IMG/VR virus record: IMGVR_UViG_3300029705_000040
Coordinates: 38,209-102,208 of that record
Strand: one strand, 5' to 3'
DNA: 64,000 bases
Source of the DNA: a virus
Lineage: Duplodnaviria > Heunggongvirae > Uroviricota > Caudoviricetes
Made by a program: the position numbers and the translations under genes. Positions 34,242 through 64,000 of the stretch are shown here, piece by piece (position 1 is the stretch's first letter; each line of letters begins with the position of its first letter). The notes beneath the pieces were generated by a model. The model was not told the DNA's origin. It saw only the letters and a program-made list of their open reading frames with translations, and searched no databases.

Positions 34242-34802
34242 ATGGATTGTATATATGAAACTTATGATGCAGAAGGTAAACACTGCTCTAAAAGCGGATT
34301 CGGACGCGGTGTAGGAAACAGATGTCACATGGATTACGCTAATTATTGCACCTGGTATACCCCAGAAAAACCTACTGTAATTGATAGCTTTCAAGGTAAT
34401 TATGCTTTCTTAAGCAACTTTTATGAAAATAGAGATCAATATGTAAAATGCGATCTAGGACTTAAATATAAATCAGTAGAAGCAGCATTTCAAGCGAGCA
34501 AAACACTTGATAAGAAAATGAGAAAAGTATTTACCGAATTAAGTCCTAGTGCAGCAAAATATCTTGGCCGACACATACAATTAAGAGAAGACTGGGAACA
34601 AATTAAAGATACGGTTATGTATCAACTTGTTATGTACAAGTTTACCCATTGTGAAGAAATAAGAGAATTATTATTAGAAACCGATGACATAGAGCTTGTG
34701 GAAGGTAATTGGTGGAATGATAAATACTGGGGAGTTTGTAATGGTGAGGGTCAAAATAAACTCGGTAAAATTCTAATGAAAGTGCGGGAGGAACTCAAGT
34801 AA
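34242..34802 (+). CDS. NADAR-domain (YbiA-like) protein
   Basis: FLSNFYEN...VEAAFQASK...VMYQLVMYKF...ELLLETDDIELVEGNWWNDKYWGVCNGEGQNKLGKILMKVR fits the YbiA/DUF1768 pattern. Confidence 0.7.
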   Translation: MDCIYETYDAEGKHCSKSGFGRGVGNRCHMDYANYCTWYTPEKPTVIDSFQGNYAFLSNFYENRDQYVKCDLGLKYKSVEAAFQASKTLDKKMRKVFTELSPSAAKYLGRHIQLREDWEQIKDTVMYQLVMYKFTHCEEIRELLLETDDIELVEGNWWNDKYWGVCNGEGQNKLGKILMKVREELK

Positions 34803-34978
34803 TGGAAGATCCTAGAATTGAAGAAATTAAAGATATTTTATACAAAAAATATATAACTAGTAGACAATACTGTGCTGATGTAGAAGTTAGCGCATGCAAC
34901 GCTTACGCTATGCTTTGCATGGCTCAAAACGGTGTATCTGATCCAATTATTAAAGTAATAGAAGAAGGTAATAAATAA
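34802..34978 (+). CDS. Hypothetical protein, 58 aa
   Basis: ORF. Confidence 0.4.
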   Translation: MEDPRIEEIKDILYKKYITSRQYCADVEVSACNAYAMLCMAQNGVSDPIIKVIEEGNK

Positions 34979-35565
34979 TGAAATATACATTTACTGTAAG
35001 TCCATTAAGCGAAGACTCCATGATAAAGGAAGCGCGTACTTTTGATTTTCAAAATGAACTTCAAGCACAAGCTGTTAAAGAAGCTTTTGATATTTGCAGA
35101 TATAAACTAGAAGCAGAAGTGTCTGATATACAGCAAGTTCTAGATGAAAAAGATAAAGTAAAATTTTTAGAAAGAATCAGTGTTAGCTTTGATGCAGAAA
35201 CAGATGGCGATTATGGCTTTAGAAATGATGATTTTTCTAAATATATGGAACGCATGTCAGGTAAAGATAAAGAATATTCTTATACTAAGCCACATTGCTT
35301 TAGTTTTTGTATTCGATATGTTTGCGATGGAAAAGCTAATGATTATGACGCCAAAATGCAGGCTAGAGACTTTATCGAAAATATCGTTAGACACATTGAC
35401 TTTGGTCACTTATACTTGATGAAACATTTCTATGATATGTATGACAAAGCTAGCAAATGGATTTTTAATAACACTTCTGAAAACGAATTTCACTGGAATT
35501 TAAGTGGTAATTACGAAGGTACAGAATTAAGAGTATATAGGGAATATATAGAATGTGCGAATTAA
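34978..35565 (+). CDS. Hypothetical protein, 195 aa
   Basis: ORF. Confidence 0.55.
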   Translation: MKYTFTVSPLSEDSMIKEARTFDFQNELQAQAVKEAFDICRYKLEAEVSDIQQVLDEKDKVKFLERISVSFDAETDGDYGFRNDDFSKYMERMSGKDKEYSYTKPHCFSFCIRYVCDGKANDYDAKMQARDFIENIVRHIDFGHLYLMKHFYDMYDKASKWIFNNTSENEFHWNLSGNYEGTELRVYREYIECAN

Positions 35566-35729
35566 ATCAAGATTGTTTTCTTTACTATAAAAAATGTGAC
35601 TTCTGTAATAGAGAATTTATTTATGATAATACAGTCATAAATAATGATAAAATAAACTGCCCATTCTGTAAAAAAGAATTGAAAGCAGAAAAATTATCTT
35701 TAAGTGAACTTTTTATTGAAATAGAATAA
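35553..35729 (+). CDS. Small zinc-ribbon protein
   Basis: CDFCN...CPFC. Confidence 0.4.
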   Translation: MCELNQDCFLYYKKCDFCNREFIYDNTVINNDKINCPFCKKELKAEKLSLSELFIEIE

Positions 35730-35754
35730 TTTTAATTATCAGGTTAAGATTTAG

Positions 35755-35783
35755 TTGATTTTAACCTGTTTTTATTATATAAT
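35755..35783 (+). promoter_or_regulatory. Promoter copy 10 (TTGATT-N17-TATAAT) within inverted repeat AGGTTAA/TTAACCT
   Basis: TTGATT 35755-35760, TATAAT 35778-35783. Confidence 0.55.
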
Positions 35784-35816
35784 AAATATATAGAAGTATA
35801 AAAGGTATTTTAATAT

Positions 35817-35975
35817 ATGCTAGATGACGAAGAATTATTAGGAAAAGAAGGAACATGCTCTTGCGGAGCACCTGGTCATTGGTGCTATAATCCTTATTGC
35901 GAAGAAATTTATGGACAATTGGTTCTTGATTGTTTGTGCGATATATGCTACAATCAGCTTTGTGATGATATTTAA
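35817..35975 (+). CDS. Small Cys-rich protein, 52 aa
   Basis: ORF. Confidence 0.4.
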   Translation: MLDDEELLGKEGTCSCGAPGHWCYNPYCEEIYGQLVLDCLCDICYNQLCDDI

Positions 35976-35992
35976 TATAGAGGTATTTAATT

Positions 35993-37072
35993 ATGCGAGT
36001 TTATAGACTTATGAAAAAGAATGCAAATAGTCCTAGCACAGAAGTATTTAAAACTTATGATTGCAGTGAGTTTGATCTTTATATAACAAAACAAATTTAT
36101 GCAGGAAATATTTCTTATGATCCTGCATGTTACTATCCGAGCAAAGAAAAGCAAGTAGATATGTTTTGCAAAGATTTATGGAAGGGCTACGAACATTTCG
36201 ATGGAATTGACCATGAGCATTGGATCGATATCCGAGACCTTGATCCAACTAAAAATAGAGATGATTACATAATGAGCGTCTTGCATGAGCATCATAAAGA
36301 AGCTAAAGAATTAGGCTATGAGGTTATGGTAACAATTTTGCAAGGCTCTCAAAATTATGGATTGGACATCTATAATGATTCTTATAAGTCTGATATTGAT
36401 TCTAAGGCTATTGTTATCCCTACTTTCGAAGATTTTGTTGTTGGTAGAAGTCCAGTAAGTCATACTCATGAGCGAGAAAATAAAGAGCATATTGATTTGA
36501 AAGATATTAGAATTATGTTTGATACTTTCAAAAAGCAGAATGTAAACTTTGTTGAAATTCTTTTTTCTGATTATTTTGTTGTTGAGCCTAAATATAAAGA
36601 CCTTTGGGAAGATTTGAGATCTTTAGCTGAAGAATTGGTGCATGCACATCCTTCTCAGACGGTAAAAACAATGAGTGGTATGAGCAAAGAAAAATATAAA
36701 GCTCTTAAACATCCATATCCCACAATTAAGTGGAAAATTGACAAATGGGGCTATGATGGAAAGCAATTACATCATATTATCCGTATAAATGATTTTATAA
36801 AAAGATATATTTATGGTTTAAGCTTTAAAGAAGCTATGCAGCCAACCGATCATATACGAGATATGCTTATCAAAGCAAAATTAAACGAGTATACGTTAGA
36901 AGAAGCCGAAGATTTGGCTAAGAAATTTGATGAGGAAACAAATCAAATTAAAGATGATTATATTAAATATCATGGCGAAAACATCACTAACGAAGCTGCT
37001 TATGATGCATTAAACAGTATTAAGGTTAAAATTTTGAAAAAATATTTTACGGAGCAACTATTAAATGATTGA
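35993..37072 (+). CDS. Hypothetical protein, 359 aa
   Basis: AGAGGT RBS. Confidence 0.65.
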   Translation: MRVYRLMKKNANSPSTEVFKTYDCSEFDLYITKQIYAGNISYDPACYYPSKEKQVDMFCKDLWKGYEHFDGIDHEHWIDIRDLDPTKNRDDYIMSVLHEHHKEAKELGYEVMVTILQGSQNYGLDIYNDSYKSDIDSKAIVIPTFEDFVVGRSPVSHTHERENKEHIDLKDIRIMFDTFKKQNVNFVEILFSDYFVVEPKYKDLWEDLRSLAEELVHAHPSQTVKTMSGMSKEKYKALKHPYPTIKWKIDKWGYDGKQLHHIIRINDFIKRYIYGLSFKEAMQPTDHIRDMLIKAKLNEYTLEEAEDLAKKFDEETNQIKDDYIKYHGENITNEAAYDALNSIKVKILKKYFTEQLLND

Positions 37073-50621: not shown

Positions 50622-50622
50622 A

Positions 50623-51141: not shown

Positions 51142-51186
51142 ATATTTCAAAAACCTCTGTATATAATTATATATGGAGGTTATTTT

Positions 51187-51558: not shown

Positions 51559-51573
51559 TATGGAGGAATAACT

Positions 51574-51936
51574 ATGATAAGTATCAGAAGAAATACTTTT
51601 GAAACTAACTCTTCTTCTACTCATTCTTTATCTGTTGTTAACAAAGAAGATTGGGAAAAATTTAAAGCTGGCGAGCTTTATTTCGCATCAGATAATTATG
51701 ATTTAATCAGTAAGGAAGATGTCATTGAACTAGATGCTTTCGAAGATAGCTATCCAGAATTTAAAGATCAGCCAGAAGATGTTAAAAAATATTTAATTGA
51801 AAAATTTATAAAAGATAATTGCGACGGAGAATACGCACCTATATACTCTTACAGATATCTTGATCCACCTTTCAAAATTGTTTATGATAAAAATGGAAAT
51901 GAGATGGTAGCTTTTTCATTCTATTTTTATGGCTAA
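51574..51936 (+). CDS. Paralog family member E (MISIRRNTFETNSSSTHS)
   Basis: Conserved N-terminal motif. Confidence 0.55.
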   Translation: MISIRRNTFETNSSSTHSLSVVNKEDWEKFKAGELYFASDNYDLISKEDVIELDAFEDSYPEFKDQPEDVKKYLIEKFIKDNCDGEYAPIYSYRYLDPPFKIVYDKNGNEMVAFSFYFYG

Positions 51937-52046
51937 ATTAAAAGAACATAGACGCTTTAATATAGTATAATCAGCTCTAAATGCGCGCAAGAGTTTATTA
52001 TTCTGTATAATAAAGCAAATACAAAAATTTAAGGAGAATAAAAATC

Positions 52047-53344
52047 ATGGCAGGTAATAATTCTATACAACTTCTGCGTGGTAGTTCAACTGCTAGAAAA
52101 GCTAGCACTGAAAAATTGCTCTCCGGTCAACCTTTCTACGAAACAGATACAAATTTGTTTTATGTAGGGGGGGGGGCAACTTAAGCTCTGCTACACCTAT
52201 TAAGGTTAGCACTCTCACAATCTAGAGAAATGGTACAACTGTTGGTACCTTTAATGGTTAGACAGCTCAAACTATTAATATCTAGGATACTGATACTAAC
52301 ACAGACTTAAAAACAGCATCAGGAAATACTTCAAGCAAAATCTACTTAATTGGTGCTACTAGCCAATCTAGTTCTGGTCAAACAACATACTCTCATGATA
52401 CAGCATATGTTGGAACAGATGGTTGTTTATACAGTAATAGTAGTAAGGTTGCTGTAAGAACAGAAGTACCATATATTTTAAAAGATAACTCTTATTTAGT
52501 TATTTATAAAAACGATTCTTCTACATTAGAGTCAAATTGTATATATACAAATTATCCATCATACACAATAACTTTTAATGCGAATGGTGGCAGCTGTTCA
52601 ACAACATCGAGTAAGACATTTAGAGGAAAATTATCTAGCTTACCTACACCCACTATGAGTGGTGGTACATTCTTAGGTTGGGGCACGTCATCTTCTGCAA
52701 CTAGCTATGTAAGCTCTAGCAAAGTTTATAGCTCTAACACAACACTTTATGCTATTTGGAAAATTGATAGTACATCAAGTGGATCAGGTAACGATTATGA
52801 AGGTACTTATCAGTTAATAGATGATGAAAGTCCACAAAACGTGTTAGCTACTGATGATTATGTTATCATAGCCGGCACCACATCATCTGACAGTATGTTA
52901 TATTTTATGGGTAATGATTTTTCTGGTAATTATCCATATAACTATTCTTTAGATCCTTCTGACCAACTAACTTTAGATGGCTCTAGCAGTATAGCTATAT
53001 TTAAAGTTACTTATAACGATGGTTAGATAGCTTTACAACTTGCAAATGGTGAGTATTCAGGACAATATTTAGCAAATACTTCGAATAAATATTTAAAACT
53101 TCAATCAGATGAATGTTTTTGGGATATCTCAGAACATGGGTCTCCAGCGTACGGCGGTTTGCAAGTTGGTTCTAATAGAACCAAGCTCATATGTCAGGAC
53201 ACAGGCAACCTTATAGTAGTTCCTACTAGTATGCAAGCTAATAGCAACAACAGCTATAGTACAACATTCTCGTGTTATACTAATCCAAGTAGTAGTTATC
53301 TTGATACGACTCAAATATTCAGGCTGATCACAGATTCTAACTAA
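52047..53344 (+). CDS. Tail-fibre-like receptor-binding protein with Listeria-Bacteroides repeat domain. Reading frame interrupted twice near the 5' end and carrying 4 in-frame TAG codons
   Basis: N-terminus MAGNNSIQLLRGSSTARKASTEKLLSGQPFYETDTNLFYVGGG (typical tail-fibre N-terminal motif) in frame 0 up to the G9 tract 52167-52175. Body from 52184 to TAA 53342 lies in frame +2 (…KVSTLTI*RNGTTVGTFNG*TAQTINI*DTDTNT…ITFNANGGSCSTTSSKTFRGKLSSLPTPTMSGGTFLGWGTSSSATSYVSSSKVYSSNTTLYAIW…) with no ATG before 52655. TAG at 52223, 52259, 52283 and 53024. Removing one G from the G9 tract and one T from 52198-52201 would restore a single frame. Confidence 0.55.
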
Positions 53345-53360
53345 CCATAAGAAAATAAAA

Positions 53361-53397
53361 AAGATCTCAAGATTTATTTCTTGAGATCTTTTCTTTT
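53361..53397 (+). terminator. Rho-independent terminator
   Basis: AAGATCTCAAGA-tttattt-CTTGAGATCTT followed by TTCTTTT. Confidence 0.7.
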
Positions 53398-53399
53398 AG

Positions 53400-53428
53400 T
53401 TGATTTTATCCTCAAAATATTATATAAT
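53400..53428 (+). promoter_or_regulatory. sigma70-like promoter TTGATT-N17-TATAAT (copy 13)
   Basis: TTGATT 53400-53405, TATAAT 53423-53428. Confidence 0.55.
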
Positions 53429-53460
53429 ATAAATATAAAAGAAGAGGTAAAAAAAAAATT

Positions 53461-53718
53461 ATGTTGAAAATTGAACAAATCGAAAAAGACTTACTTTGGG
53501 TAATTAAACTTACAGATGGTACTAGAAAAGTTGGAACCTATGATACGGTTAAAGCTTTTTTAGATAGAAATGCTAATATGTTCGATGATATCGATCTGTG
53601 TTGTAAGCAACCTGAACATCTTCAAGAATTTGTTGATAACTGGCTTAAGCATGATTCTGATAATAAATGTTTTACTATTTTAGAAGAATACTATAAAATC
53701 TATCTTAAAAATAGTTGA
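53461..53718 (+). CDS. Hypothetical protein, 85 aa
   Basis: AGAGGT RBS. Confidence 0.5.
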   Translation: MLKIEQIEKDLLWVIKLTDGTRKVGTYDTVKAFLDRNANMFDDIDLCCKQPEHLQEFVDNWLKHDSDNKCFTILEEYYKIYLKNS

Positions 53719-53743
53719 CTTTTAACCCAAAATATACTATAAT
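53715..53743 (+). promoter_or_regulatory. sigma70-like promoter TTGACT-N17-TATAAT (copy 14)
   Basis: TTGACT 53715-53720, TATAAT 53738-53743. Confidence 0.55.
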
Positions 53744-53773
53744 TATAATATAAATAAGAGAGGTAATTTTATT

Positions 53774-54538
53774 ATGACTATGCAAGAACTTGAACTTAAA
53801 TATGAGCAAGCAAAAATAACTGAAAAAGAATTAGCTGAAAAAGCTTGCGAAGCTAGAATTGCTTTAAGTGATAAATTCCAGAAAACGTTAGAGCAATTCT
53901 TTGTAGAAGATGATTGCATTATCAGTTATTCTGACGTAAGAATAAGTTATCATGATGCAACTAAAGCAGAATTTGGTTGTGATATTGGCTTTAAAGACCC
54001 TGAAAATACTGATAGATTGGATTTTGGATCTAGCTTTTATTTTGAGTTCGAAGATAGTAAGATCAAAATAAATACTGGAAGTATTGGTGCTTATAAACTT
54101 TCTGATATATATCAACTTAAAAGAAACAATACTATATACCATCTTACTTGCGTTAATGGCGAAAAACTTGAAAAAGCTTTGTGTGATATTGATTGTAGCG
54201 AATATGTTGAAGCTACACATAAATTTTGGGAAGCTTCTACACAAACTAGAGATGCATATAAAGCTATTGAAAACGCTAGAGTAAAAAATATTTCTGAAAG
54301 TCTTAATGTGGGTAAGATTTATAAGCATTCTAACGATAGAAGTATGTCTTTCTACAAACCTTGCCTTTTTACCTTTCAAACAGACCTTATTAAGATTACA
54401 AAAATCACAAACAAATCTGTTGAGGTTGAAATTACTAATACTGACACTCAAAGATATCCTGGAATCAAGTATGAAAAAGTCAGAAAAAGTAGCTTAATTG
54501 ATGATATTTTAGCAGGAAAGTTGTTAGAGGTAGAATAA
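53774..54538 (+). CDS. Hypothetical protein, 254 aa
   Basis: AGAGGT RBS. Confidence 0.6.
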   Translation: MTMQELELKYEQAKITEKELAEKACEARIALSDKFQKTLEQFFVEDDCIISYSDVRISYHDATKAEFGCDIGFKDPENTDRLDFGSSFYFEFEDSKIKINTGSIGAYKLSDIYQLKRNNTIYHLTCVNGEKLEKALCDIDCSEYVEATHKFWEASTQTRDAYKAIENARVKNISESLNVGKIYKHSNDRSMSFYKPCLFTFQTDLIKITKITNKSVEVEITNTDTQRYPGIKYEKVRKSSLIDDILAGKLLEVE

Positions 54539-54720
54539 TGGAAAATACTAAATCATCTCTTATTGCAGCATTCTTTGAAAAGCAACCTATTGGTGATTGC
54601 ACTGATAATAAATTTGAGTTTGGAAATTTACATAGAAAAACTATCGAATGTTCATTTTGTATAAATAATAAATGTCATTATCGAGGTGACTGCGATCGGA
54701 GGAAATCATATGAAAAATAA
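54538..54720 (+). CDS. Small Cys-rich protein
   Basis: Coupled ORF. Confidence 0.4.
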   Translation: MENTKSSLIAAFFEKQPIGDCTDNKFEFGNLHRKTIECSFCINNKCHYRGDCDRRKSYEK

Positions 54721-55084
54721 AGAAGACTTTAATCAAGAAACCGCTGAGCGTGATCTTCTTGAAAAAGATATTTCAGAAAGTATCGAATATGATGACTGGC
54801 GAGCTAGAGAGTATGGTGAACTCGATGTTGATACGCACTGGACTGCTAAGCATCTCTATGATAAAGGTTGGCGAAATAAATGTTTAGAAACACCTAACAC
54901 GCCGAATACTTTTATTATTAAGGATACTGCTTATATTACATGCAAATGCTGCAATCACGCCATCAGAACTTATGATTTGAGCATATACATGCCTGATGCA
55001 GAAGTTATTAAACAATCTATCGAGGTAAATAAAGATAACATTTATCCTTATTATTGCGAAAATTGTGGTGTAAAATTAAAGTAA
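54710..55084 (+). CDS. Hypothetical zinc-ribbon protein
   Basis: GGAGG precedes ATG 54710; CKCCN...CENCG. Confidence 0.5.
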   Translation: MKNKEDFNQETAERDLLEKDISESIEYDDWRAREYGELDVDTHWTAKHLYDKGWRNKCLETPNTPNTFIIKDTAYITCKCCNHAIRTYDLSIYMPDAEVIKQSIEVNKDNIYPYYCENCGVKLK

Positions 55085-55099
55085 ATCTAGAGAAAAATT

Positions 55100-55417
55100 A
55101 TGGAAGCAAACTTAAAAAATAATTACTTCCCAAACTATGAGTGTGGTGAGTGTGTTCCACATCTTGCTTATTTGTATGATCACATAAGCAGAGATGACTT
55201 GATTAAAGATAACTGTATAAAATGTTTTTTATATAAAAAAGATATAAAAGTTTTAGATGAAAATCTGTATACATATAAGAATATATTTATAGAAAAAGTA
55301 GATTTAACTTCGCAAATAGTATCAGGTTATGGTTTCAAGGTAAAAAATAGAGAAACTATACACTTTAATATAACGAGCGCTTGCGATGAAATAGATGAGG
55401 AAATACAAAATGTTTAA
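55100..55417 (+). CDS. Hypothetical protein, 105 aa
   Basis: ORF. Confidence 0.5.
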   Translation: MEANLKNNYFPNYECGECVPHLAYLYDHISRDDLIKDNCIKCFLYKKDIKVLDENLYTYKNIFIEKVDLTSQIVSGYGFKVKNRETIHFNITSACDEIDEEIQNV

Positions 55418-55667
55418 TTTTTGGAGTCAATTAGAAGAAGCTTTAACCGACGCACTCAGAAATGGTATGGTTAATGAGGATAGTAATGCACTAATTACTT
55501 TCGCGAGCATTTCTATTCCTATCTGGGCAGCAAAATCGATTTTAGATGATCACAAAGATGAGGAAGAACATTTATCAGCACTTTTACAGCATATAGATAT
55601 GCTAGAAGATTACAACAGACTTCTCAGAAAAGAAAATGAGGAATTGAAAGCTGATGCGTTGGAATAA
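55410..55667 (+). CDS. Hypothetical protein, 85 aa
   Basis: GAGG precedes ATG 55410. Confidence 0.5.
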   Translation: MFNFWSQLEEALTDALRNGMVNEDSNALITFASISIPIWAAKSILDDHKDEEEHLSALLQHIDMLEDYNRLLRKENEELKADALE

Positions 55668-55818
55668 TGATCACCATGAAAAGATTTTAATGGCTAAACG
55701 CGAAAAGAAGCGTATAGAAAAGCTGTATAAAGAAAAATATCCGCAATATGATACATCAGTGCAGGATCTTGCGCAAGTAGATAAAAACTCTACAGTAACA
55801 AAATTTAAACAAATATGA
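55654..55818 (+). CDS. Small basic protein, 54 aa
   Basis: ORF. Confidence 0.4.
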   Translation: MRWNNDHHEKILMAKREKKRIEKLYKEKYPQYDTSVQDLAQVDKNSTVTKFKQI

Positions 55819-56051
55819 CAAATAGAGAATACTTAAACACAATAGATGTATGCGATGCTACTATAATTATCATACTTAAAAATACTGAGATTGAGAGTAA
55901 AATAAAACAAAGTATTATAGGAAGCAACGTAAGAAACAAATTGTGTGAAAAATATGGGGTAGATCCACATGATGGGGATCAATACTCAAAATTACAAAAA
56001 GCTATGTTAAAAGTGTGGTTAGCAGAGGAATGTATAAATGTTATTAAGTAA
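55815..56051 (+). CDS. Hypothetical protein, 78 aa
   Basis: ORF. Confidence 0.5.
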   Translation: MTNREYLNTIDVCDATIIIILKNTEIESKIKQSIIGSNVRNKLCEKYGVDPHDGDQYSKLQKAMLKVWLAEECINVIK

Positions 56052-56178
56052 AGAAAGTTTTGTTAAAACAATTAATTTCATGAAAGAAAGAAATGCTAAA
56101 ATGGAATAGTTAAATAAGCTTTTCACCGAAGAATTTGAAGATTCTATTTTCTTTCCTTATTTTAAGTACGAAGCTGAA

Positions 56179-56382
56179 ATGGGTAGAGTGTTGAAAGAAA
56201 TTTTCAATGATACAGAAGAATGGATAGATTATTTTTGCTATGAGCGCAATTTTGGTGCTGACTTGAAACTGGGTGATGTTAAATATGCAGATGGTACGCC
56301 TATACCAATGAGCACGCCTGAAGAGCTTTATGATTTTCTTATTATAAATATGAAAGAAAAATCAGAAGAAATTGCTGATTAA
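56179..56382 (+). CDS. Hypothetical protein, 67 aa
   Basis: ORF. Confidence 0.45.
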   Translation: MGRVLKEIFNDTEEWIDYFCYERNFGADLKLGDVKYADGTPIPMSTPEELYDFLIINMKEKSEEIAD

Positions 56383-56491
56383 CATATTTATCTAAATATT
56401 TATGTTTTACCTATAGAGGGTAATAAAATTATTACAAACAAACACTTAAACATTATATTTCATGTGTTTTGTCTTTCATACTTCTCTTCCG

Positions 56492-56523
56492 CCTCGAAAT
56501 CTTTTTGGTTTCGAGGTATTTTT
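56492..56523 (+). terminator. Rho-independent terminator
   Basis: CCTCGAAA-tctttttgg-TTTCGAGG followed by TATTTTT. Confidence 0.6.
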
Positions 56524-56525
56524 AG

Positions 56526-56554
56526 TTGATTTATTCCATAAAATATATTATAAT
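56526..56554 (+). promoter_or_regulatory. sigma70-like promoter TTGATT-N17-TATAAT (copy 15)
   Basis: TTGATT 56526-56531, TATAAT 56549-56554. Confidence 0.55.
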
Positions 56555-56585
56555 ATATATGTAAATAAAAGATAGAGGTGCTGTT

Positions 56586-57389
56586 ATGGCGAAAGTAGAA
56601 TTTATTGAAAAGCGAATCGAAGGTTGCAAGAAAAATCTTGAAAAAGCTGAAAAGAAACTTGCACGAATTCTTAAAGCAGAAGAAAGTAATTATGAGGAAA
56701 ACAATCCTTATTACTACTCAGACTATGATAAGCGGGTTACTTTGAGAGATATCGAAGATCTTAAAAAGAATCTTGAAAAATATGAGCAAGATTTAGCTAT
56801 TGCAACCGAAAAAGAAAATAGCAGAAATGTTCAGATTATTATTGACTTCTTGCAGAATTGGAAAGAAAAAGTATTTGCTGAGTATAAAAGAGATTTAACA
56901 GCAGCATATAATATGAGAGCAGAAGTAAGAAAACTTTATCCAGCTTATTATGTAAGCAAAGATAGCGCTGAGTATCATGAGTGGGAAGAGTTAAGTAAAG
57001 AATATAATGAAAGAATTAAGGGTAAATATTCTTACGAATTGCTCATGAATCCCTGGACTAAAAAAGAAGAAAAGCATAAAGTTAAAGTAGAAGATGGGAT
57101 TTGGGAATATCTTATAAACTATCTCAGTTATAATACCTTAGAAGATGCGCTTGAAAGATTGGATAAAGATTTAACTGATGAGAAGAACAGAAAATATGAT
57201 TTCATTATCGAGCGCACAAATAAGTTTGTAGGTGAAATAGAAGATGTTTCTGATTTGAGAGTTTCTTCTAATGGCGAACTTAATGGTTTCATTATTGGGA
57301 CTAGAGGAAAAGCAAAAGTTACTACTATCATTGCAAATGGTCCTATCAGAATTGCTCATTTCAGAGTTTTGGTTAAAGAGGTAAAATAA
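56586..57389 (+). CDS. Hypothetical protein, 267 aa
   Basis: AGAGGTG RBS. Confidence 0.6.
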   Translation: MAKVEFIEKRIEGCKKNLEKAEKKLARILKAEESNYEENNPYYYSDYDKRVTLRDIEDLKKNLEKYEQDLAIATEKENSRNVQIIIDFLQNWKEKVFAEYKRDLTAAYNMRAEVRKLYPAYYVSKDSAEYHEWEELSKEYNERIKGKYSYELLMNPWTKKEEKHKVKVEDGIWEYLINYLSYNTLEDALERLDKDLTDEKNRKYDFIIERTNKFVGEIEDVSDLRVSSNGELNGFIIGTRGKAKVTTIIANGPIRIAHFRVLVKEVK

Positions 57390-57390
57390 C

Positions 57391-57780
57391 ATGTTGAAAA
57401 CTAGAAATTATGTCAGAGGTAAACAAATTCTCACAGTATCAGATCTCAAAAATGCAACTAATGGATTGTTTGTTAAAGATAAAACGATGACGGAATTTGG
57501 CTGTATCGATAATCCAGTAAATAGAGAATTTTCATATTTAGGCGATGATAAGGCTATTGAAAAATGGTTAAATAGCGCTTTAAAGACTCATGACTTATAT
57601 GAGAGAATAATTGAAAATAGAGAAGTCGTATTTTCTGATAAGATTGATAATATGCTCGATGATATGTTAGCATCATTTGCGTATGAATACTCTGATACGG
57701 AATATCATAATGAAGAAATTATGGAAAAATTTCTTCGTGAACTTAAAGAAAAATTTAAAATTGAGGTGAGAGATGAGTAA
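57391..57780 (+). CDS. Hypothetical protein, 129 aa
   Basis: Coupled ORF. Confidence 0.55.
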   Translation: MLKTRNYVRGKQILTVSDLKNATNGLFVKDKTMTEFGCIDNPVNREFSYLGDDKAIEKWLNSALKTHDLYERIIENREVVFSDKIDNMLDDMLASFAYEYSDTEYHNEEIMEKFLRELKEKFKIEVRDE

Positions 57781-57976
57781 TGAAAATTTTTTCCTTATGC
57801 TGGTAGAAAAAGAAATGATTGAGTTATGCAATAACAAGCCTAAAATTGAAAATTCACTTAGAATTTATACTTTCTCATATCACAATGCATATGATGTGGC
57901 TATATATGGTACAGTTAAATTTAACCAAATCGGTGGTTTTATAGAATTTATTGAGGAGGGACGATCTGATGATTAA
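57773..57976 (+). CDS. Hypothetical protein, 67 aa
   Basis: ORF. Confidence 0.45.
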   Translation: MSNENFFLMLVEKEMIELCNNKPKIENSLRIYTFSYHNAYDVAIYGTVKFNQIGGFIEFIEEGRSDD

Positions 57977-58058
57977 ATACATACTATTAGGACTTATATG
58001 CTCTAGCTTCGGCTTTTTTATGGGTAGATGGTCTAAAAATTAAAAGAGGTGATAAAAT

Positions 58059-58406
58059 ATGACTGAGTTATCTATGAGAGAAATTAGCGAAATATTTAAA
58101 GAATACGCTGAAGAAGTTAATATTCCTGTTCGAGATATTATGTTTAGTACTGATGGTAAAAATACTATCACCATCTATACTGATATTCCAGGGCTCTTAA
58201 TTGGTAAAGCCGGCTCTACTATTGAAAAGTATAAGAAAAAATTAAATGCGTTAGTTACTGAGCACAATAATATTATTAAGCAAATAAACAGCAAGCCAGA
58301 TAGAGAGTATACTATTCCTGAGATGCCAGAAGTTAAGTTTAATATAATCGAAGTAACTAGAGCTAATTTTTGGTTAAATTATAATTCAATGGGGGAATGT
58401 TTCTGA
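58059..58406 (+). CDS. Hypothetical protein, 115 aa
   Basis: AGAGGTG RBS. Confidence 0.55.
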   Translation: MTELSMREISEIFKEYAEEVNIPVRDIMFSTDGKNTITIYTDIPGLLIGKAGSTIEKYKKKLNALVTEHNNIIKQINSKPDREYTIPEMPEVKFNIIEVTRANFWLNYNSMGECF

Positions 58407-58801
58407 TGAAAGATATCTTTAGATTTTGCATTAGTGTTGCTATAACTATTTTAAATGTTATCTGGATAGTTCATGGAGCTGTAGTTATACATAATTCTTT
58501 TGTAGAAGGTAAACAGGTAGCTTTATGGGAAGTTATTGTTATGAGCTTAGCTTTTGGTTGGTTAGGTTATTTAGCTATAAGCGAGTTTATTTGGGCTATT
58601 AAAAATATTTCTTTTCAGAGAGATAGATATGAAAACAGAGTAGCAAAATATTTAGTTAAAGCTAGACATTATACTAGATTTAAAGCTTACCGACTCATCG
58701 ATGCTAATAAAGGAATAATCAGTATGTGTATTGAAGATAACTTATCTCATAAAATTTGTGGTAGAATTTTAGATGGAGTATTTAACGTTGAAAAAGAATA
58801 A
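58397..58801 (+). CDS. Membrane protein
   Basis: Hydrophobic. Confidence 0.5.
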   Translation: MFLMKDIFRFCISVAITILNVIWIVHGAVVIHNSFVEGKQVALWEVIVMSLAFGWLGYLAISEFIWAIKNISFQRDRYENRVAKYLVKARHYTRFKAYRLIDANKGIISMCIEDNLSHKICGRILDGVFNVEKE

Positions 58802-59162
58802 ATTAATAATAGGTATCATTCTCATGATTGTTGGTTTCGCGGTTATTGCGTTAAACATCGCTTTAATGGTAAAAAATTCTGGTGTAAATATTAAATTAGA
58901 TGATGCTTTTTTCTATGTTATTATAACAATAGCTGGTTGGTGTTTTATCAAAACAGGCTTCTTTATGATTTTAGAAGCGTTTGTTACCAGTGAGCGAGTG
59001 TATAAGATTGCTTTAAAGGAAACGTTCAATAAATATAATACTAATATGTATGATTACATGACCGATGAGATGATCAAATATTGCGCAGAGCATTGCTGCA
59101 ACACAGAACATGTTTTTTATTTAGTAACTAATTCTAAATACGAACCTGAGTTTAATTTGTGA
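58773..59162 (+). CDS. Membrane protein
   Basis: Hydrophobic. Confidence 0.45.
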   Translation: MEYLTLKKNKLIIGIILMIVGFAVIALNIALMVKNSGVNIKLDDAFFYVIITIAGWCFIKTGFFMILEAFVTSERVYKIALKETFNKYNTNMYDYMTDEMIKYCAEHCCNTEHVFYLVTNSKYEPEFNL

Positions 59163-59171
59163 GGCGCTAGC

Positions 59172-59414
59172 ATGTTAACAGAAAAAGATTTAGAAGAGAT
59201 AGCTAGAGTAAAGAAAAATGTAGAAGCATGTATGGATAATGAAAATTGTAAAAATTGCTCATACAAACAATCTACAAGCAGCAGTGAGAGTTGCAAATCT
59301 AAACTACTAGCTGATTGCTTTAACGTTATGAGAAAGTATCAAATAAGCTATGATAAATTATTATCACAGAATAAAAGATTACATAAAAGGGTGATGGAGG
59401 ATTTAGGTATATGA
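59172..59414 (+). CDS. Hypothetical protein, 80 aa
   Basis: ORF. Confidence 0.5.
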   Translation: MLTEKDLEEIARVKKNVEACMDNENCKNCSYKQSTSSSESCKSKLLADCFNVMRKYQISYDKLLSQNKRLHKRVMEDLGI

Positions 59415-59596
59415 TTTGCGTAGAAGGCTATAAAGCATTTAGAGGTATTATGAAAATTACCCCAACTAACCCAAAATTTCCTGCAGAAGAAATAGAAGCT
59501 GACTGGCTTTATAAACCGGAATATGATTGTTGGTATGGGAAGGGTTGGTCTTATCCAGCAGCTATTTGTATAGTAATTTTAGATAAAACAGCTTAA
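59411..59596 (+). CDS. Hypothetical protein, 61 aa
   Basis: ORF. Confidence 0.45.
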   Translation: MICVEGYKAFRGIMKITPTNPKFPAEEIEADWLYKPEYDCWYGKGWSYPAAICIVILDKTA

Positions 59597-59602
59597 AAAC
59601 AG

Positions 59603-59631
59603 TTGATCTTTCTATAAATTTATTATATAAT
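59603..59631 (+). promoter_or_regulatory. sigma70-like promoter TTGATC-N17-TATAAT (copy 16)
   Basis: TTGATC 59603-59608, TATAAT 59626-59631. Confidence 0.5.
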
Positions 59632-59663
59632 ATTATTGTAATAAATAGTAAGAAGGTTAAATT

Positions 59664-60083
59664 ATGGCTGATTATTTTAAGGATGATTTTGGAAATTACG
59701 AAGTTACTTTCACTTATAAGGAGCCAGATAATGGGAAAACTTATGAGTTTAGAAAATATGTAAATAGTAAGAAAATTAAAGCTTTAGGTGGTATGTATGC
59801 TATCTACTGCGAAGAAGATAATAAAATTATTTTTAGAAAATCAGAATATTTGCGGGATAGAAGTTACAAAAAGTTTTCAGAAGATCAATGCGAGGATTTC
59901 ATTTATGTAAATAAAGCTACGGATGATGAAAATCCTTCTGCTTATGAGTTGTTAGAACAATTAAATAAAAGAATAAAGTCAGAATATTATTCACTTCCTT
60001 CTAAAATTGATAAAACAAAATTAACAGAAGAAGAATTTCAAACTTTGAGAGGACTGATAAAGAAAAGCTTACCATCGAGGTGA
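59664..60083 (+). CDS. Hypothetical protein, 139 aa
   Basis: AAGAAGGT RBS. Confidence 0.55.
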   Translation: MADYFKDDFGNYEVTFTYKEPDNGKTYEFRKYVNSKKIKALGGMYAIYCEEDNKIIFRKSEYLRDRSYKKFSEDQCEDFIYVNKATDDENPSAYELLEQLNKRIKSEYYSLPSKIDKTKLTEEEFQTLRGLIKKSLPSR

Positions 60084-60087
60084 AACT

Positions 60088-60267
60088 ATGAGATACGATA
60101 AATATAGAATTCTTAAGCAAGGTAAAGACTTATGGGTGATTATTGAGCCTAGCAGACAGCTTACGTTGTATGATGAAAATAATAAGTTATTGCATTTTAC
60201 TACAAAAGAATCTGCTTTAAAATATTGTGCAGATAATAATCTAGAAGTAGGTGAGGAATATGTTTGA
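60088..60267 (+). CDS. Hypothetical protein, 59 aa
   Basis: ORF. Confidence 0.4.
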   Translation: MRYDKYRILKQGKDLWVIIEPSRQLTLYDENNKLLHFTTKESALKYCADNNLEVGEEYV

Positions 60268-61558
60268 GGAATTAATTAAAGAATATACTTGCTTAAAAAC
60301 AGAAGCAGAATTTTCTGTTAGATTTGCTAACATGTTACAAAGTTTGACCTGCGCATTAAATGAAAATAATAAGAATGATGTAAGTTATTATACTAGAAGA
60401 AGCAAAGAGCTTTTGGAAGGTACTAGAGTTCCTATCCAGGTTCCTATGTTTGAAATCAGTAATACGCATCCTGATTTTGCATGGCTTACAAATGCTCTCG
60501 AATCTGTTATTAGTTCTGAAATGTGGCACCCTATGGTTAGTGCTAACGTAGGTTATGAGTATAGAAAGATTGTAAATCATTGGTATGATTTAACCTGTGA
60601 TGATTCTGCACCCAGAAGAAAAGCATTAGGTGATTTCTCTATGAGAGGTCAAGAATGTAGACACAGTGCTTATAAATCAAGCGCTGGTTGGTTGTTATCT
60701 CACGTAAACACTGCTACTGTTCCTGCAATCCCTTATCTCGAACAATATTATAATGCAGATTGTACTAAAGAAGAAGTTGGTTTTGGATCACCTAGTACTG
60801 AGCATTCTGTTATGTGCTCAAACTTCGCAGTAGATGGTGATGAAATCACAATGGTTAAACGCCTTCTTACTGAAAAATATCCTAACACTTCTTTCTCAAT
60901 GGTTTCAGATAGTTATGATTATTGGAATTTAGTTTGCAATATTCTTCCTAAATGCAGAAAAGAAATAGAAGAACATAATGGATGCTTACTAGTTAGAGGT
61001 GATAGCGGTGATCCAGTAGATGTTGTAACTAAAACAGTATTTCAATTAGGTGAGCTTTTTGGTTATAGCGTAAATAGTAAAGGCTATAAAGTTCTCAATC
61101 CTAAAGTGAAAGCTATTTATGGCGATTCTATTACAGTGACTAGAGCTGCTCAAATCTATGAAATTTTATATAAAAATGGTTGGGCTGCTAGCAATGTAGT
61201 ATTAGGTGTTGGTAGTTTCTCAATGCAATGTCTTGAGGGTGAAAATGGTAAATTAAATCCTTTTACTAGAGACACTTTTGGTATTGCTATTAAAGCAACG
61301 CATGTGCTTATGAAAGATGGAACTGAACATTTTGTATTTAAGAATCCTAAAGAAGGTGGATTTAAAAAGTCACATAAAGGTTGCTGTTTAGTTATTAATG
61401 ATGGTGGCGAACTTATTTGCAATGATGAACATAAATTTGTAGAAACATACTCAGTGTTAAACGAAATGAAAGTAGTGTTTAAAGATGGTAAGATGGTTAA
61501 AGATCAGAGCTTGAAAGAAATTAGAGACAGATTGTGGGACAATAAATTCTATGAGTAA
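60260..61558 (+). CDS. nadV: Nicotinamide phosphoribosyltransferase (NAMPT/NadV-like)
   Basis: SPSTEHSVM, SMVSDSYDYWN, LLVRGDSGDPVDVV, KAIYGDSIT, VLGVGSF are collinear with NAMPT blocks; GAGG precedes ATG 60260. Confidence 0.8.
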   Translation: MFEELIKEYTCLKTEAEFSVRFANMLQSLTCALNENNKNDVSYYTRRSKELLEGTRVPIQVPMFEISNTHPDFAWLTNALESVISSEMWHPMVSANVGYEYRKIVNHWYDLTCDDSAPRRKALGDFSMRGQECRHSAYKSSAGWLLSHVNTATVPAIPYLEQYYNADCTKEEVGFGSPSTEHSVMCSNFAVDGDEITMVKRLLTEKYPNTSFSMVSDSYDYWNLVCNILPKCRKEIEEHNGCLLVRGDSGDPVDVVTKTVFQLGELFGYSVNSKGYKVLNPKVKAIYGDSITVTRAAQIYEILYKNGWAASNVVLGVGSFSMQCLEGENGKLNPFTRDTFGIAIKATHVLMKDGTEHFVFKNPKEGGFKKSHKGCCLVINDGGELICNDEHKFVETYSVLNEMKVVFKDGKMVKDQSLKEIRDRLWDNKFYE

Positions 61559-61946
61559 TTACAGAATAACATATAAAAACTGTTTCGATGTACCAAATAA
61601 AAACAAACATATTTACTCTAAAGCTATTCTTGAAAAAGCTTTCGCACAATTAACAGAAAAACTTCCTGTTATGTATGTAGCTGATGAAAAGCAATTTCTA
61701 GAGAATAGTTTTGAAATAATTGGCGCAGTAACAGATACAACTTTCACTGATAATGATCTTATTATGGAAGTTAGCATTTGTAATGCAGATTTATATCCTG
61801 AAAGTTATCCATTATGCTTATGTGGTTGGGATGAGGTTGAGTATGAGCCATCAGAAGGTGCCTTTTGCGCAACTGAAAATTATAGATTAAATTGTTTATA
61901 TCCATGGCCAGATTGCGCTTTTGATTATGAGTTGGAGAAAATCTAA
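61551..61946 (+). CDS. Hypothetical protein, 131 aa
   Basis: ORF coupled to nadV. Confidence 0.5.
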   Translation: MSNYRITYKNCFDVPNKNKHIYSKAILEKAFAQLTEKLPVMYVADEKQFLENSFEIIGAVTDTTFTDNDLIMEVSICNADLYPESYPLCLCGWDEVEYEPSEGAFCATENYRLNCLYPWPDCAFDYELEKI

Positions 61947-62162
61947 ATGTATAAGGTAGAATTATCTATAGAAGAAATTTGCTTAATTAAATCAGCTTTA
62001 ACTGACTTAAATCAAAAATTGGAAGATAAGAAAATAACAGCAGTGCATTTTTATACTGGCAAAAAAGATTTAAAGAAAAGCTTACAACATATAGATGAGA
62101 CTAGGTTAGATATTTTTACTGTTTTAGGTAAATTAAATAATGTAACTATAAAAACAGAATAA
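61947..62162 (+). CDS. Hypothetical protein, 71 aa
   Basis: ORF. Confidence 0.45.
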   Translation: MYKVELSIEEICLIKSALTDLNQKLEDKKITAVHFYTGKKDLKKSLQHIDETRLDIFTVLGKLNNVTIKTE

Positions 62163-62230
62163 AATTTGCTAAAAGTTTAAATATTATTGATATTAAAATA
62201 TAAATAAAAATAATTGGAAGAGGAATAAAA

Positions 62231-62455
62231 ATGGATACATTATCAATAAATTATATGGAACTAGATCCAAATAAAGTTTATCATATCGCTGTTGAAGTTA
62301 GAGATATGAGTGTAAAGGATACAGAAGACCATTTAACTAGAGTTAGAGATTTATTTAGTAACTATGGAATTAAAGCAATTTATTCTGCGATGACCTACGG
62401 TGTACATTCAGTAACTATTACTGATTTACCTATGTCTATAAAGAATAACAATTAA
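62231..62455 (+). CDS. Hypothetical protein, 74 aa
   Basis: ORF. Confidence 0.45.
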   Translation: MDTLSINYMELDPNKVYHIAVEVRDMSVKDTEDHLTRVRDLFSNYGIKAIYSAMTYGVHSVTITDLPMSIKNNN

Positions 62456-62462
62456 ACAAATT

Positions 62463-62753
62463 ATGGCATTTCTTTTAATATATTTACTAGTTGCATTATT
62501 TACTATGGTTATTTCATTAGGTAAAGTGGTTTGGCAAGAAGATGAGGATTTTATATTGAATTGTACTCCATCGATGCTCTACGATAACTACCGCAGTTTA
62601 AATATGTTTGCTTGTGTTACATTATGGGTAATTATTTTACTGATAAATCCATTATGGCAAATTTTATTCAATGGTGGTACTTTTCTAATTTATAATATTG
62701 GTAAATTTTTTAAATTTATTTTTACAATTGGGAGAAAAAATGATTACTTATAA
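62463..62753 (+). CDS. Membrane protein
   Basis: Hydrophobic. Confidence 0.45.
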   Translation: MAFLLIYLLVALFTMVISLGKVVWQEDEDFILNCTPSMLYDNYRSLNMFACVTLWVIILLINPLWQILFNGGTFLIYNIGKFFKFIFTIGRKNDYL

Positions 62754-63219
62754 AACTGGAAATTTATTAGAAGCAGATGTTGACTATATTGTACATCAGG
62801 TAAATTGTCAAGGCGCGATGGGTTCAGGTATAGCTAAGCAAATTAGAAATAAATGGCCTCATGTTTACGATGAGTATAAGTGGTTTTTAAATTGCAGTAA
62901 AAATAGCTGGAAAATACCTGCTTTAGGAAGAATCCAAATTATTCTAGAAGATCCAGATAAAGAAGTTGGTAAATGTAGAAATATAGTAAATTTCTTCTCT
63001 CAGTATCACTATTTACCTAGAAATGTAGTTAACACAGATTATGATGCTTTCAGAAGTTGCTGCGAAGAGCTGAGAACAGTTGCACTCAAACATCAAACAA
63101 TCGGTTTTCCTTATAAAATTGGGTGTGGTTTAGCAGGTGGTGATTGGACAATTGTAGAGAATATTATCGCCACTGTTTTCGAAGATTATAATGTGGAGAT
63201 TTATAAATATGAAGCTTGA
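62740..63219 (+). CDS. Macro-domain protein (ADP-ribose binding / O-acetyl-ADP-ribose deacetylase-like)
   Basis: DYIVHQVNCQGAMGSGIAKQI... and GCGLAGGDW macro signatures; GGAG precedes ATG 62740. Confidence 0.8.
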   Translation: MITYKTGNLLEADVDYIVHQVNCQGAMGSGIAKQIRNKWPHVYDEYKWFLNCSKNSWKIPALGRIQIILEDPDKEVGKCRNIVNFFSQYHYLPRNVVNTDYDAFRSCCEELRTVALKHQTIGFPYKIGCGLAGGDWTIVENIIATVFEDYNVEIYKYEA

Positions 63220-63391
63220 TCTTTGTAAGAAAATATTTCTAACTATACTTTTCATTTTCTTTGGTGTACTAGGTATTTGGTATACCATTAAAACAGCGAA
63301 CCCTGCAGCTTTAATCTTAGACGCTATAATGAGCTTTATAATTGGTGTAGCGTGTGGTGTAGGAATACATAGCATATGGTTTCTTAAATAA
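63209..63391 (+). CDS. Small membrane protein
   Basis: Hydrophobic. Confidence 0.4.
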   Translation: MKLDLCKKIFLTILFIFFGVLGIWYTIKTANPAALILDAIMSFIIGVACGVGIHSIWFLK

Positions 63392-63408
63392 ATAATAGAG
63401 GTATATAA

Positions 63409-64000
63409 ATGGACGCTAAAAGAGTAGCAAATAATATAAATAACTGGTTAGAAGATTATAGAGTTATAACTGATTGTAAGGGTGTTGTATTAGGCTTAAG
63501 CGGAGGTAAAGATAGTACCGTAGTTGCTATGCTTGCTAAAAAGCAATGGGGTGATGATGTTTTCGCTATTATTATGCCTAATGGTAATCAAGCTGATATC
63601 GATGATGCTATCGAAATTGCAGAAACATTAAATATTGATTATAGAATTGTAAATATTGAAACTGTTTTCAATAATTTATTATTTAATATCGAGACTGTGG
63701 TTCGCAAATCAGACATTACTGGCGAAAAAGATTGGTTTGAAAATTGCCCTAAAATTTCAGATAAAGCTAAAACAAACATTCCACCTAGACTTCGCATGAC
63801 TATTCTTTATGCTGTAGCTCAAACATTGGGTTATAGAGTTATTGGAACAGGAAATGCTAGCGAAAGATGCATTGGTTGGTTTACAAAATATGGTGATGGG
63901 GGTTGTGATTTAAATCCTATTGCGCATCTCACTTGTTCAGAAGTAATTGAGTTAGGTACATATCTCGCTCAAGAGTTTAATTTATCTGATGTATTTATTA
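63409..64000 (+). CDS. nadE: NH3-dependent NAD+ synthetase NadE (5' part; continues past the window end)
   Basis: PP-loop GLSGGKDSTVVAML and ...GTGNASERCIGWFTKYGDGGCDLNPI... Confidence 0.8.
   Translation, partial: MDAKRVANNINNWLEDYRVITDCKGVVLGLSGGKDSTVVAMLAKKQWGDDVFAIIMPNGNQADIDDAIEIAETLNIDYRIVNIETVFNNLLFNIETVVRKSDITGEKDWFENCPKISDKAKTNIPPRLRMTILYAVAQTLGYRVIGTGNASERCIGWFTKYGDGGCDLNPIAHLTCSEVIELGTYLAQEFNLSDVFI

Follow-up and report, generated by a model that had tools for sequence, protein, structure and literature searches.

A probable 3′ remnant of a conserved NAD+ reconstitution operon in an uncultured jumbo phage

The window analysed here is a stretch of 64,000 nucleotides from an uncultured jumbo phage of ~260 kb (Caudoviricetes; positions 38,209 to 102,208 of the IMG/VR record IMGVR_UViG_3300029705_000040), and the genes in question belong to the metabolism of nicotinamide adenine dinucleotide (NAD+) and ADP-ribose (ADPR). 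The original prediction had placed four such genes in it, encoding a NAMPT-type nicotinamide phosphoribosyltransferase, a macro domain, the NAD synthetase NadE and a distant NADAR protein, and matches to Pfam, PHROG and NCBIfam profiles bear out all four positions. With moderate confidence, judging from gene content and sequence comparison, we read the window as the 3′ remnant of a conserved NAD+ reconstitution operon of four to five genes, present in gut phages and Clostridia, which would encode a deamidated, NARP1-like route. The window holds the 3′ part only, namely a truncated transferase, four small open reading frames (ORFs), the macro gene, another small ORF and NadE, and this copy of the operon is probably crippled or degenerate. 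The features concerned are as follows.

60260–61558, + strand: N-terminally truncated transferase of the Namat/Nampt family ('Ala clade'), 432 aa
60370–60417, no strand: putative recombination or deletion junction within the transferase gene (blastn and three-way DNA alignment)
61551–62753, + strand: four small ORFs (131, 71, 74 and 96 aa) between transferase and macro
62740–63219, + strand: macro-domain protein, 159 aa, candidate ADPR-1''-phosphate phosphatase (Adpp-like)
63409–64000, + strand: NH3-dependent NAD synthetase NadE, first 197 of 266 codons (gene ends at window-equivalent 64209)
34242–34802, + strand: NADAR/YbiA-family protein, 186 aa (Pfam NADAR)

The transferase and its truncation

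The 432-aa transferase matches Pfam NAPRTase (E 9e-18) and PHROG 448, 'nicotinamide phosphoribosyl transferase' (E 3e-122). The family is named 'nicotinate phosphoribosyltransferase' at NCBI (NF006629), and against the NCBIfam family cut-off of 405 bits the window protein scores 350, below it, and a full-length relative 456, above it. In a phmmer search the best solved match, at 292 bits, is the SpbetaL1 Namat (9w5x/9w5w); H. ducreyi NadV reaches 226 bits and human NAMPT 133. The Namat entries are labelled in Foldseek 'Namat in complex with nicotinamide/NAD', and a Foldseek search with an AlphaFold2 (AF2) model reproduced this ranking, with Namat chains as the top seven matches. The nearest annotated phage relatives, from Staphylococcus phage GH15 (ORF203) and Bacillus phage LY2, are 40–42% identical, and in both the transferase gene comes directly after a 'ribose-phosphate pyrophosphokinase' (Prs-like) gene, the layout of NARP1, which consists of Adps and Namat (Osterman et al. 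2024, bioRxiv 10.1101/2024.02.11.579819).

The catalytic-core motifs of type II phosphoribosyltransferases are retained (DFSMRG; TEHS, with the catalytic His that corresponds to human His247; VRGDSGD; YGDS; GS...TRD). The nicotinamide-binding Asp of the GTDT motif (D215 in SpbetaL1, D219 in human) is replaced by Ala in the window transferase (VNTAT). Substitution of this residue by Ser (D219S) in human NAMPT is said to allow the enzyme to accept nicotinic acid. Asp219 is reported to set the substrate specificity of NAMPT (PMC7096376), and in Namat the D215A substitution lowers NAD+ synthesis ~8-fold (PMC12774641). A second difference lies in the adenine 'selectivity clamp' helix, for which the Namat SCH clamp signature is GSxΦxΦxΦTRD with aromatics at positions 3 and 7 (Lan et al., PMC12774641). 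The window sequence, GSFSMQC-LEGENGKLNPF-TRD, keeps the Phe at position 3, has Cys at position 7 and carries a 10-residue insertion; such an insertion, of 9–26 residues, is found throughout the clade, in which the motif spans 20–37 aa compared with 11 aa in GH15 and LY2. The supposed NAMPT is a member of a Namat-related clade with Ala at the Asp site and not a canonical NAMPT.

The protein is also incomplete. Its best 120 homologues (94% to 65% identity) are all ~490–505 aa long and possess a NAMPT_N domain, whereas the window protein lacks this domain and aligns only from about its own residue 40, at about residue 100 of the 491-aa relatives. The closest of these is P0001, the full-length 491-aa transferase of contig L015, on which an Adps-like gene and a 70-aa ORF precede the transferase; residues ~53–432 of the window protein are 94% identical to it, while residues 1 to ~40–52 are unrelated to the family. 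At the DNA level, homology to L015 (blastn, 93.7% nt) begins at window position 60377 and becomes near-identity from ~60417 in the three-way alignment, and 5′ of this junction the window is unrelated both to the relatives' Adps-like gene and to the 5′ part of their transferase gene. A rearrangement at ~60370–60417 appears to have removed the upstream genes and the first ~100 transferase codons, and to have supplied an unrelated N terminus of 40–52 residues.

Other origins for this N terminus were considered. AF2 models the first 44 residues with a pLDDT <50, and a phmmer comparison of the N-terminal 55 residues with ~225 family proteins gave nothing significant, on which ground we rejected a divergent family member. 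For sequence past the window end we used contig L001, which is 99.99% identical to the window over 13.7 kb (50260–64000) and extends 7.5 kb beyond it; the span read, ~72 kb in all, starts 0.7 kb before the window and ends at window-equivalent 71.5 kb. A tblastn search of this span for a separate N-terminal domain, a split gene or a DFYK-containing piece, with the N-terminal 115 residues from each of five full-length relatives and with the GH15 and LY2 Namat proteins, returned a best E value of 0.5; a split gene was rejected, the upstream 59-aa and downstream 131-aa ORFs being unlike the missing domain. The 444-aa relative P0100 was likewise dismissed as a second N-truncated allele, as it is shortened at the C terminus instead.

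The lost segment comprises strand β1, which bears the DFYK motif, and the β1–β2 SCL loop, a region in which the full-length relatives have a PRMSR segment. In Namat, β1 is one of the central strands in the sheet of domain A, the partner subunit's pocket for nicotinamide is lined by D13'/Y15', and the SCL loop (Arg40') stacks on the adenine as the other jaw of the clamp (PMC12774641). The equivalent NAMPT_N strand of NAMPT, DxYK (Asp16/Tyr18), also serves the active site of the partner subunit. Because β1, whose Asp and Tyr complete the partner's pocket, and the SCL loop are both lost, the 432-aa transferase is probably inactive or badly impaired.

Several observations weigh against inactivity. 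The reading frame is intact and is preceded by a good Shine–Dalgarno sequence (GGTGAGGA, 5 nt 5′ of the ATG), and outside the junction only 4 nonsynonymous changes, compared with ~15 synonymous ones, have accumulated since the split from L015, with no sign of decay. Furthermore, several datasets (JGI, ENA and Logan samples) contain the identical truncated protein, on at least 22 contigs in all, and two of these contigs have lengths of 258,782 and 262,203 bp. The intact frame, the Shine–Dalgarno sequence and the few nonsynonymous changes are compatible with a recent truncation as well as with retained function, and a lineage-specific dN/dS comparison was not significant (Fisher p = 0.45), most of the 'changes' in the window lineage being clustered at the junction.

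These same features, together with the Pfam and PHROG assignment to NAMPT and the retention of most catalytic-core motifs, speak for a working NAMPT that converts nicotinamide and phosphoribosyl pyrophosphate (PRPP) to nicotinamide mononucleotide (NMN) and forms, with NadE, macro and NADAR, an unconventional salvage or counter-defence cluster. We regard this as very improbable, given that the domain which completes the dimeric active site is missing, that the nicotinamide-binding Asp is Ala, that the ~72 kb read contains no NMN adenylyltransferase (NMNAT), which would be needed to use NMN, and that the substrates of NadE are deamidated and do not include NMN.

The complete operon in phages and Clostridia

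What the intact operon looks like is evident from 100 IMG/VR loci, in which we scored all ORFs with profiles built from the operon genes. The neighbourhoods of full-length relatives are uniform, with an isochorismatase-family (PncA-like) protein, a Pribosyltran (Prs-like) protein of 265–271 aa, the transferase, Macro and NadE; two gene orders recur. PncA-like, Prs-like and NadE genes lie within 8 kb in 92 of the 94 loci with full flanks (at least 3.5 kb on both sides). Clustering of the transferases at 90% identity gave 37 lineages, any two of which are at least 42% identical, and the trio is present in 32 of the 34 lineages with full flanks, an Adps-like gene adjoins the transferase in 33 of them (and in L015), a macro gene occurs in 21 (~60%) and NadD is absent from 32 despite the presence of NadE. 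The order transferase–macro–NadE is kept across dozens of lineages, and the Asp site is occupied by Ala in 35 of the 37 lineages, by Ser in two and by Asp in none. NadE is thus a constant member of an operon made up of PncA, an Adps-like gene, the transferase, an optional Macro and NadE, and not an idiosyncratic addition. In L154 (9164–11131) and L197 (9350–11305), which belong to the GTDB loci described below, a glutamine-dependent NAD synthetase of two domains (CN_hydrolase and NAD_synthase) takes the place of NadE, and NAD-synthetase activity would therefore be what the position requires.

Both upstream proteins of the relatives have recognisable affinities. The best solved matches of the PncA-like protein are the nicotinamidase/pyrazinamidases of P. 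horikoshii and M. tuberculosis, with which its Asp/Lys/Cys triad and Asp/His/His metal site align. The Prs-like protein matches the protein in the Adps position of LY2 over its full length (136 bits, 31% identity) and other Bacillus phage homologues with up to 155 bits, compared with 40 bits for the PRPP synthetase of B. subtilis, and it reaches none of the NCBIfam cut-offs for ribose-phosphate diphosphokinases. Like Adps it is short, and the GH15 and LY2 proteins have PP loops similar to its own, DDICSYGGTF. Homologues occur in 1,098 phage records, including ICP1, whose Adps structure has been published (PMC13586617).

Some loci carry additional genes. NADAR is part of the operon in L034, where it separates Macro from NadE, and of that in L110/L111, where it follows NadE. 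L014 has a gene for an NrtR-like regulator 5′ of PncA (4499–5206) and one for a 137-aa CTP_transf_like adenylyltransferase directly 3′ of NadE (10672–11085); the adenylyltransferase is found in the same place in the related locus L019. Among annotated phages, the human gut phage Phass-1 (GenBank OQ749652) encodes a nicotinamidase, a ribose-phosphate pyrophosphokinase, NAMPT, a hypothetical protein and NadE. NadE itself occurs in 51 of 50,697 GenBank phage records compared with 2,022 records for a Nampt-family gene, and this rarity may be why surveys of isolate genomes have missed the operon.

The macro protein of the window is a marginal match to Pfam Macro (22 bits, which equals the cut-off), but its identification is upheld by PHROG 335, 'phosphatase' (E 2e-47). 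It scores 194 bits against a profile of operon-linked macro proteins and shares 50–51% identity with its counterparts in the L012 and L013 operons. It is also 33% identical to gp179 of Vibrio phage ABurr, which is encoded between Adps (gp178) and Namat (gp180), and shares with it the motifs HQxNCxxxMGxGIA and GCGLAGGDW. Its nearest solved and NCBIfam relatives are DarG macrodomains, although the position of the DarG catalytic Lys is occupied by Gln, and the similarity to yeast Poa1p is weak (24 bits, N terminus only). The NadE gene matches Pfam NAD_synthase (E 4e-42); its score is 312 bits with the profile of operon NadE proteins and, when the gene is completed from L001, 190 bits on TIGR00552 nadE (cut-off 64). 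The 266-aa protein has a single domain without CN_hydrolase and carries the SGGKDS version of the SGGxDS P-loop; its best solved match is F. tularensis NadE (3FIU, 129 bits), followed by that of B. subtilis (104 bits). Macro and NadE genes look intact and may help alone or together with host enzymes. The four small ORFs are conserved in L015 (2518–3659, 92% nt identity); the first, of 131 aa, overlaps the transferase stop codon by 8 nt and has no Pfam or PHROG match.

The NADAR protein scores above the family cut-offs (Pfam NADAR E 2e-28, 100 bits against a cut-off of 35; PHROG 1017; TIGR02464 79 bits against a cut-off of 74). Its gene lies ~25 kb and ~50 genes from the other three and is not linked to them here as it is to the operons of L034 and L110/L111; NADAR beside phage NAD-salvage genes has already been noted in a published survey (PMC9503650). 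The NADAR gene is followed, 1.2 kb downstream, by one for a 359-aa protein (35993–37072) that matches PHROG 388, 'nucleotidyltransferase' (E 2e-11); we rejected this protein as a hidden NMNAT, as it has no Pfam, NCBIfam or PDB match.

The partner genes of the operon were not found near the truncated transferase. Searches with PncA, Prs/Adps-like and adenylyltransferase profiles (--max) over the whole ~72 kb gave a best E value of 0.66, and none of the flanking proteins without assignment (254, 267, 129, 128, 202 and 295 aa) qualified as a cryptic Adps or PncA. The same span contains no CTP_transf_like/NMNAT or Nudix protein, and the 7.5 kb beyond position 64000, where the original prediction had suggested looking for them, do not reveal a NadV–NatV operon; its remark that the pairing with NadE departs from the textbook NadV–NatV pair is upheld. 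There is no PncB-type enzyme in the window, which of the Preiss–Handler set (PncA, PncB with NAPRTase_N, NadD and NadE) has NadE only. A metagenome scan with a chimeric query, joining the L015 Adps fragment to the N terminus of P0001, found 10 loci, none of them on the contigs of this jumbo phage and none above 61% identity, a weak negative since the presence of those contigs in the collection is unclear. The window is the sole locus surveyed that lacks the PncA and Prs-like genes as well as DFYK. With only the 3′ half present, the term salvage cluster overstates what the window's own genes could do, real as these NAD-metabolism genes are.

The operon is also found in bacteria. A scan of GTDB species representatives yielded 80 loci, nearly all in Clostridia (Lachnospiraceae, Ruminococcus, Oscillospiraceae and cultured Clostridium), with the same gene set and with Ala at the Asp site in the 76 loci whose motif is readable; the transferases of cultured Clostridium species are ~48% identical. 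Macro is rare among these loci (5 of 55 with full flanks) compared with the viral lineages (21 of 34), which suggests that it is an add-on of the phage side. In C. intestinale DSM 6191 (L207 6351–10841) the order is Prs-like, PncA, the Ala-variant transferase and NadE, followed by an NrtR-type Nudix/winged-helix regulator. The surrounding genes, IscS, ThiI, pseudouridine-synthase and HisS-like, mark the setting as chromosomal and not prophage, and because of this copy among housekeeping genes the pathway looks host-derived.

The chromosomal copies lend some plausibility to a reduced but functional module, in which the truncated transferase, macro and NadE would work together with host PncA and Adps-like enzymes; beyond the junction the sequence signal would fit purifying selection, and the identical allele recurs on all of the contigs mentioned above. 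Such a module would depend on the enzymes of the host, the loss of β1 and D13'/Y15' should harm both fold and active site (PMC12774641), and recent truncation explains the low nonsynonymous count equally, and we consider it distinctly unlikely.

A putative deamidated route and its alternatives

We tentatively propose the following mechanism as the likeliest for the complete operon, which comprises a PncA-like nicotinamidase, a short Adps-family homologue of PRPP synthetase, an Ala/Ser Namat-like transferase, an optional Adpp-related macro protein and NadE. Nicotinamide freed by defence NADases would be converted to nicotinate by the PncA-like enzyme, while the Adps-like enzyme would convert ADPR to ADPR pyrophosphate (ADPR-PP); where macro is present, it could first dephosphorylate ADPR-1''-phosphate. 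The transferase would then join nicotinate and ADPR-PP to give nicotinic acid adenine dinucleotide (NaAD), and NadE would amidate NaAD to NAD+. Such a route would amount to NARP1 in deamidated form and would bypass NadD. In this speculative model the Ala/Ser enzymes would be nicotinate ADP-ribose transferases that yield NaAD directly, and the operon could represent a fourth, deamidated NAD+ reconstitution pathway of Clostridia, where it is NrtR-regulated, and of gut phages, widespread in metagenomes, almost absent from cultured-phage databases and decaying in the window. We put the chance of this full model at a little short of even.

The closest parallels are NARP1 and NARP1-AP, the latter being Adps–Adpp–Namat, with Adpp between Adps and Namat in Vibrio phage Gary (bioRxiv 10.64898/2026.01.28.702374). 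Namat is the nearest solved relative of the window transferase, the gene next to the full-length relatives is one of the phage Adps family, a macro gene homologous to that in the Adpp position is often inserted in the operon, and the phage setting and the presumed aim, rebuilding NAD+ from the products of NADases, are the same. The operon differs in the Ala/Ser at the nicotinamide-binding Asp, in the 9–26-residue insertion of the clamp helix and in having nicotinamidase and NadE as obligate members, so that nicotinate and NaAD would be the intermediates; the window itself differs further by the lack of Adps and of the N-terminal domain of its transferase. NARP2 and the NadV–NatV system of KVP40 (Nampt with NMNAT–Nudix) share with the operon a Nampt-family enzyme and the restoration of NAD+ in a phage, but the window and its flanks have no NMNAT/Nudix, the enzyme is nearer Namat and NadE has no place in a route via NMN.

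An ordinary Preiss–Handler pathway is the alternative most in need of weighing. Here the Ala variant would be a NAMPT-derived nicotinate phosphoribosyltransferase that makes nicotinic acid mononucleotide (NaMN) from nicotinate and PRPP, the Prs-like protein would supply PRPP, host NadD would convert NaMN to NaAD and NadE would finish, ADPR being no substrate at all. The pair of PncA and NadE classically marks deamidated salvage, and deamidated intermediates would be common to both, as would linkage to NrtR, seen in Clostridium and in L014; the family bears the name nicotinate phosphoribosyltransferase at NCBI, and in L014 and L019 an adenylyltransferase gene stands straight after NadE. Namat is still able to use PRPP in vitro (PMC12774641). 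The 'NAD-jumbo phages' of animal guts (Microbiome 2024) are the same kind of gut jumbo phage, for which that report describes NAMPT genes and, in silico, pncB–nadD–nadE clusters; its annotation is KEGG-style, and a keyword search of it gave no sign of the Ala variant, an Adps-like partner or a macro link (PMC11662467). Against an ordinary Preiss–Handler pathway, the transferase belongs to the Nampt/Namat family, not to PncB, and is nearer Namat than NadV; the Prs-like protein is closer to phage Adps-position proteins (136–155 bits) than to PRPP synthetases (40 bits), fails the NCBIfam cut-offs for the latter and is short like Adps (PMC13586617); NadD is almost always absent; and neither the Adpp-like macro of 21 of the 34 phage lineages nor the occasional NADAR would have a role in a PRPP-based route. 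On balance we hold the Preiss–Handler alternative to be unlikely, though by no means negligible.

It is also conceivable that the genes are functionally unrelated, with macro and NADAR stripping ADP-ribose from DNA, RNA or protein as an anti-DarT-type counter-defence, and NadE acting as a general auxiliary metabolic gene. The DarG macrodomains among the matches of the macro protein and the 25 kb that separate NADAR from the rest would fit, as would the neutralisation of DarT1 by phage NADARs described in one report (PMC11825919). The Gln at the catalytic Lys position of DarG does not, and the macro protein shares 50% identity with macros encoded between the relatives' transferase and NadE and 33% with the protein in the Adpp position of a NARP1-AP operon; the conserved order transferase–macro–NadE in dozens of lineages also argues against chance neighbours, and we think this explanation quite improbable.

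Several points nevertheless count against the deamidated NARP1-like route. Its chemical steps are all drawn from gene content, residues and homology, nicotinate specificity and the use of ADPR-PP from one residue, homology and co-occurrence. The clamp helix departs from the Namat signature in the loss of its second aromatic and in its long insertion, so that recognition of ADPR-PP is not assured. Francisella NadE (3FIU), the nearest solved relative of the window's NadE, prefers NaMN. The chromosomal, NrtR-linked version in Clostridium fits the Preiss–Handler reading equally well, and as regards the window, PncA and Adps could sit elsewhere in the ~190 kb of the ~260-kb genome that lie beyond the ~72 kb read.

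Genomic setting and significance

The window is AT-rich (GC ~31%), with every sizeable ORF on the + strand. Large tRNA arrays are typical of jumbo phages, and one of 28 tRNA genes, all on the + strand and covering most amino acids, occupies window positions 463–17165. Other auxiliary genes known from precomputed Pfam matches are as follows.

17192–17425: Gly_radical (GrcA-like) protein, 77 aa
20831–21727: FolD
23207–24214: AAA_33/polynucleotide-kinase-like protein
46231–47460: RNA ligase
47934–48407: dCMP deaminase

On L001, NadE is followed by genes for a small membrane protein, a 128-aa protein, a radical-SAM-like protein, two proteins without assignment, a PurZ-like adenylosuccinate-synthetase homologue and an HNH protein. 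The PurZ-type homologue (L001 18856–20028, ~5–6 kb past the window end; 390 aa) matches PHROG 1211, '2-aminooxy adenylosuccinate synthetase' (E 2e-50), and the DNA of the window phage may accordingly contain 2-aminoadenine (Z). Megablast of window 59.6–64 kb against GenBank phages gave zero matches, as did a search of IMG/VR with an exact 41-mer from the window end, and a scan of window 58.8–64 kb for promoters and terminators found sites no more numerous than in shuffled sequence.

Depletion of NAD+ is among the commonest anti-phage strategies of bacteria, and the proposal that the four genes are of the NAD+/ADP-ribose kind that phages use against such defences is supported. Each of the newly recognised phage routes for rebuilding NAD+ (NARP1, NARP2, NARP3 and NARP1-AP) has altered the reading of this arms race. 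The operon described here is very common in gut and rumen phages of Clostridia, and our literature search found nothing linking NARP1 or Namat with NadE, nicotinamidase or PncA; it is apparently undescribed. The window also serves as a caution, in that an annotation of 'NAMPT + NadE' masks a truncated gene and a half-lost operon. The single switch from Asp to Ala or Ser offers a directly testable determinant of specificity. If nicotinate is indeed coupled to ADPR-PP, this would be a new enzymatic activity and would account for PncA and NadE travelling with a NARP1 core, and the pathway would be a host housekeeping operon captured by phages.

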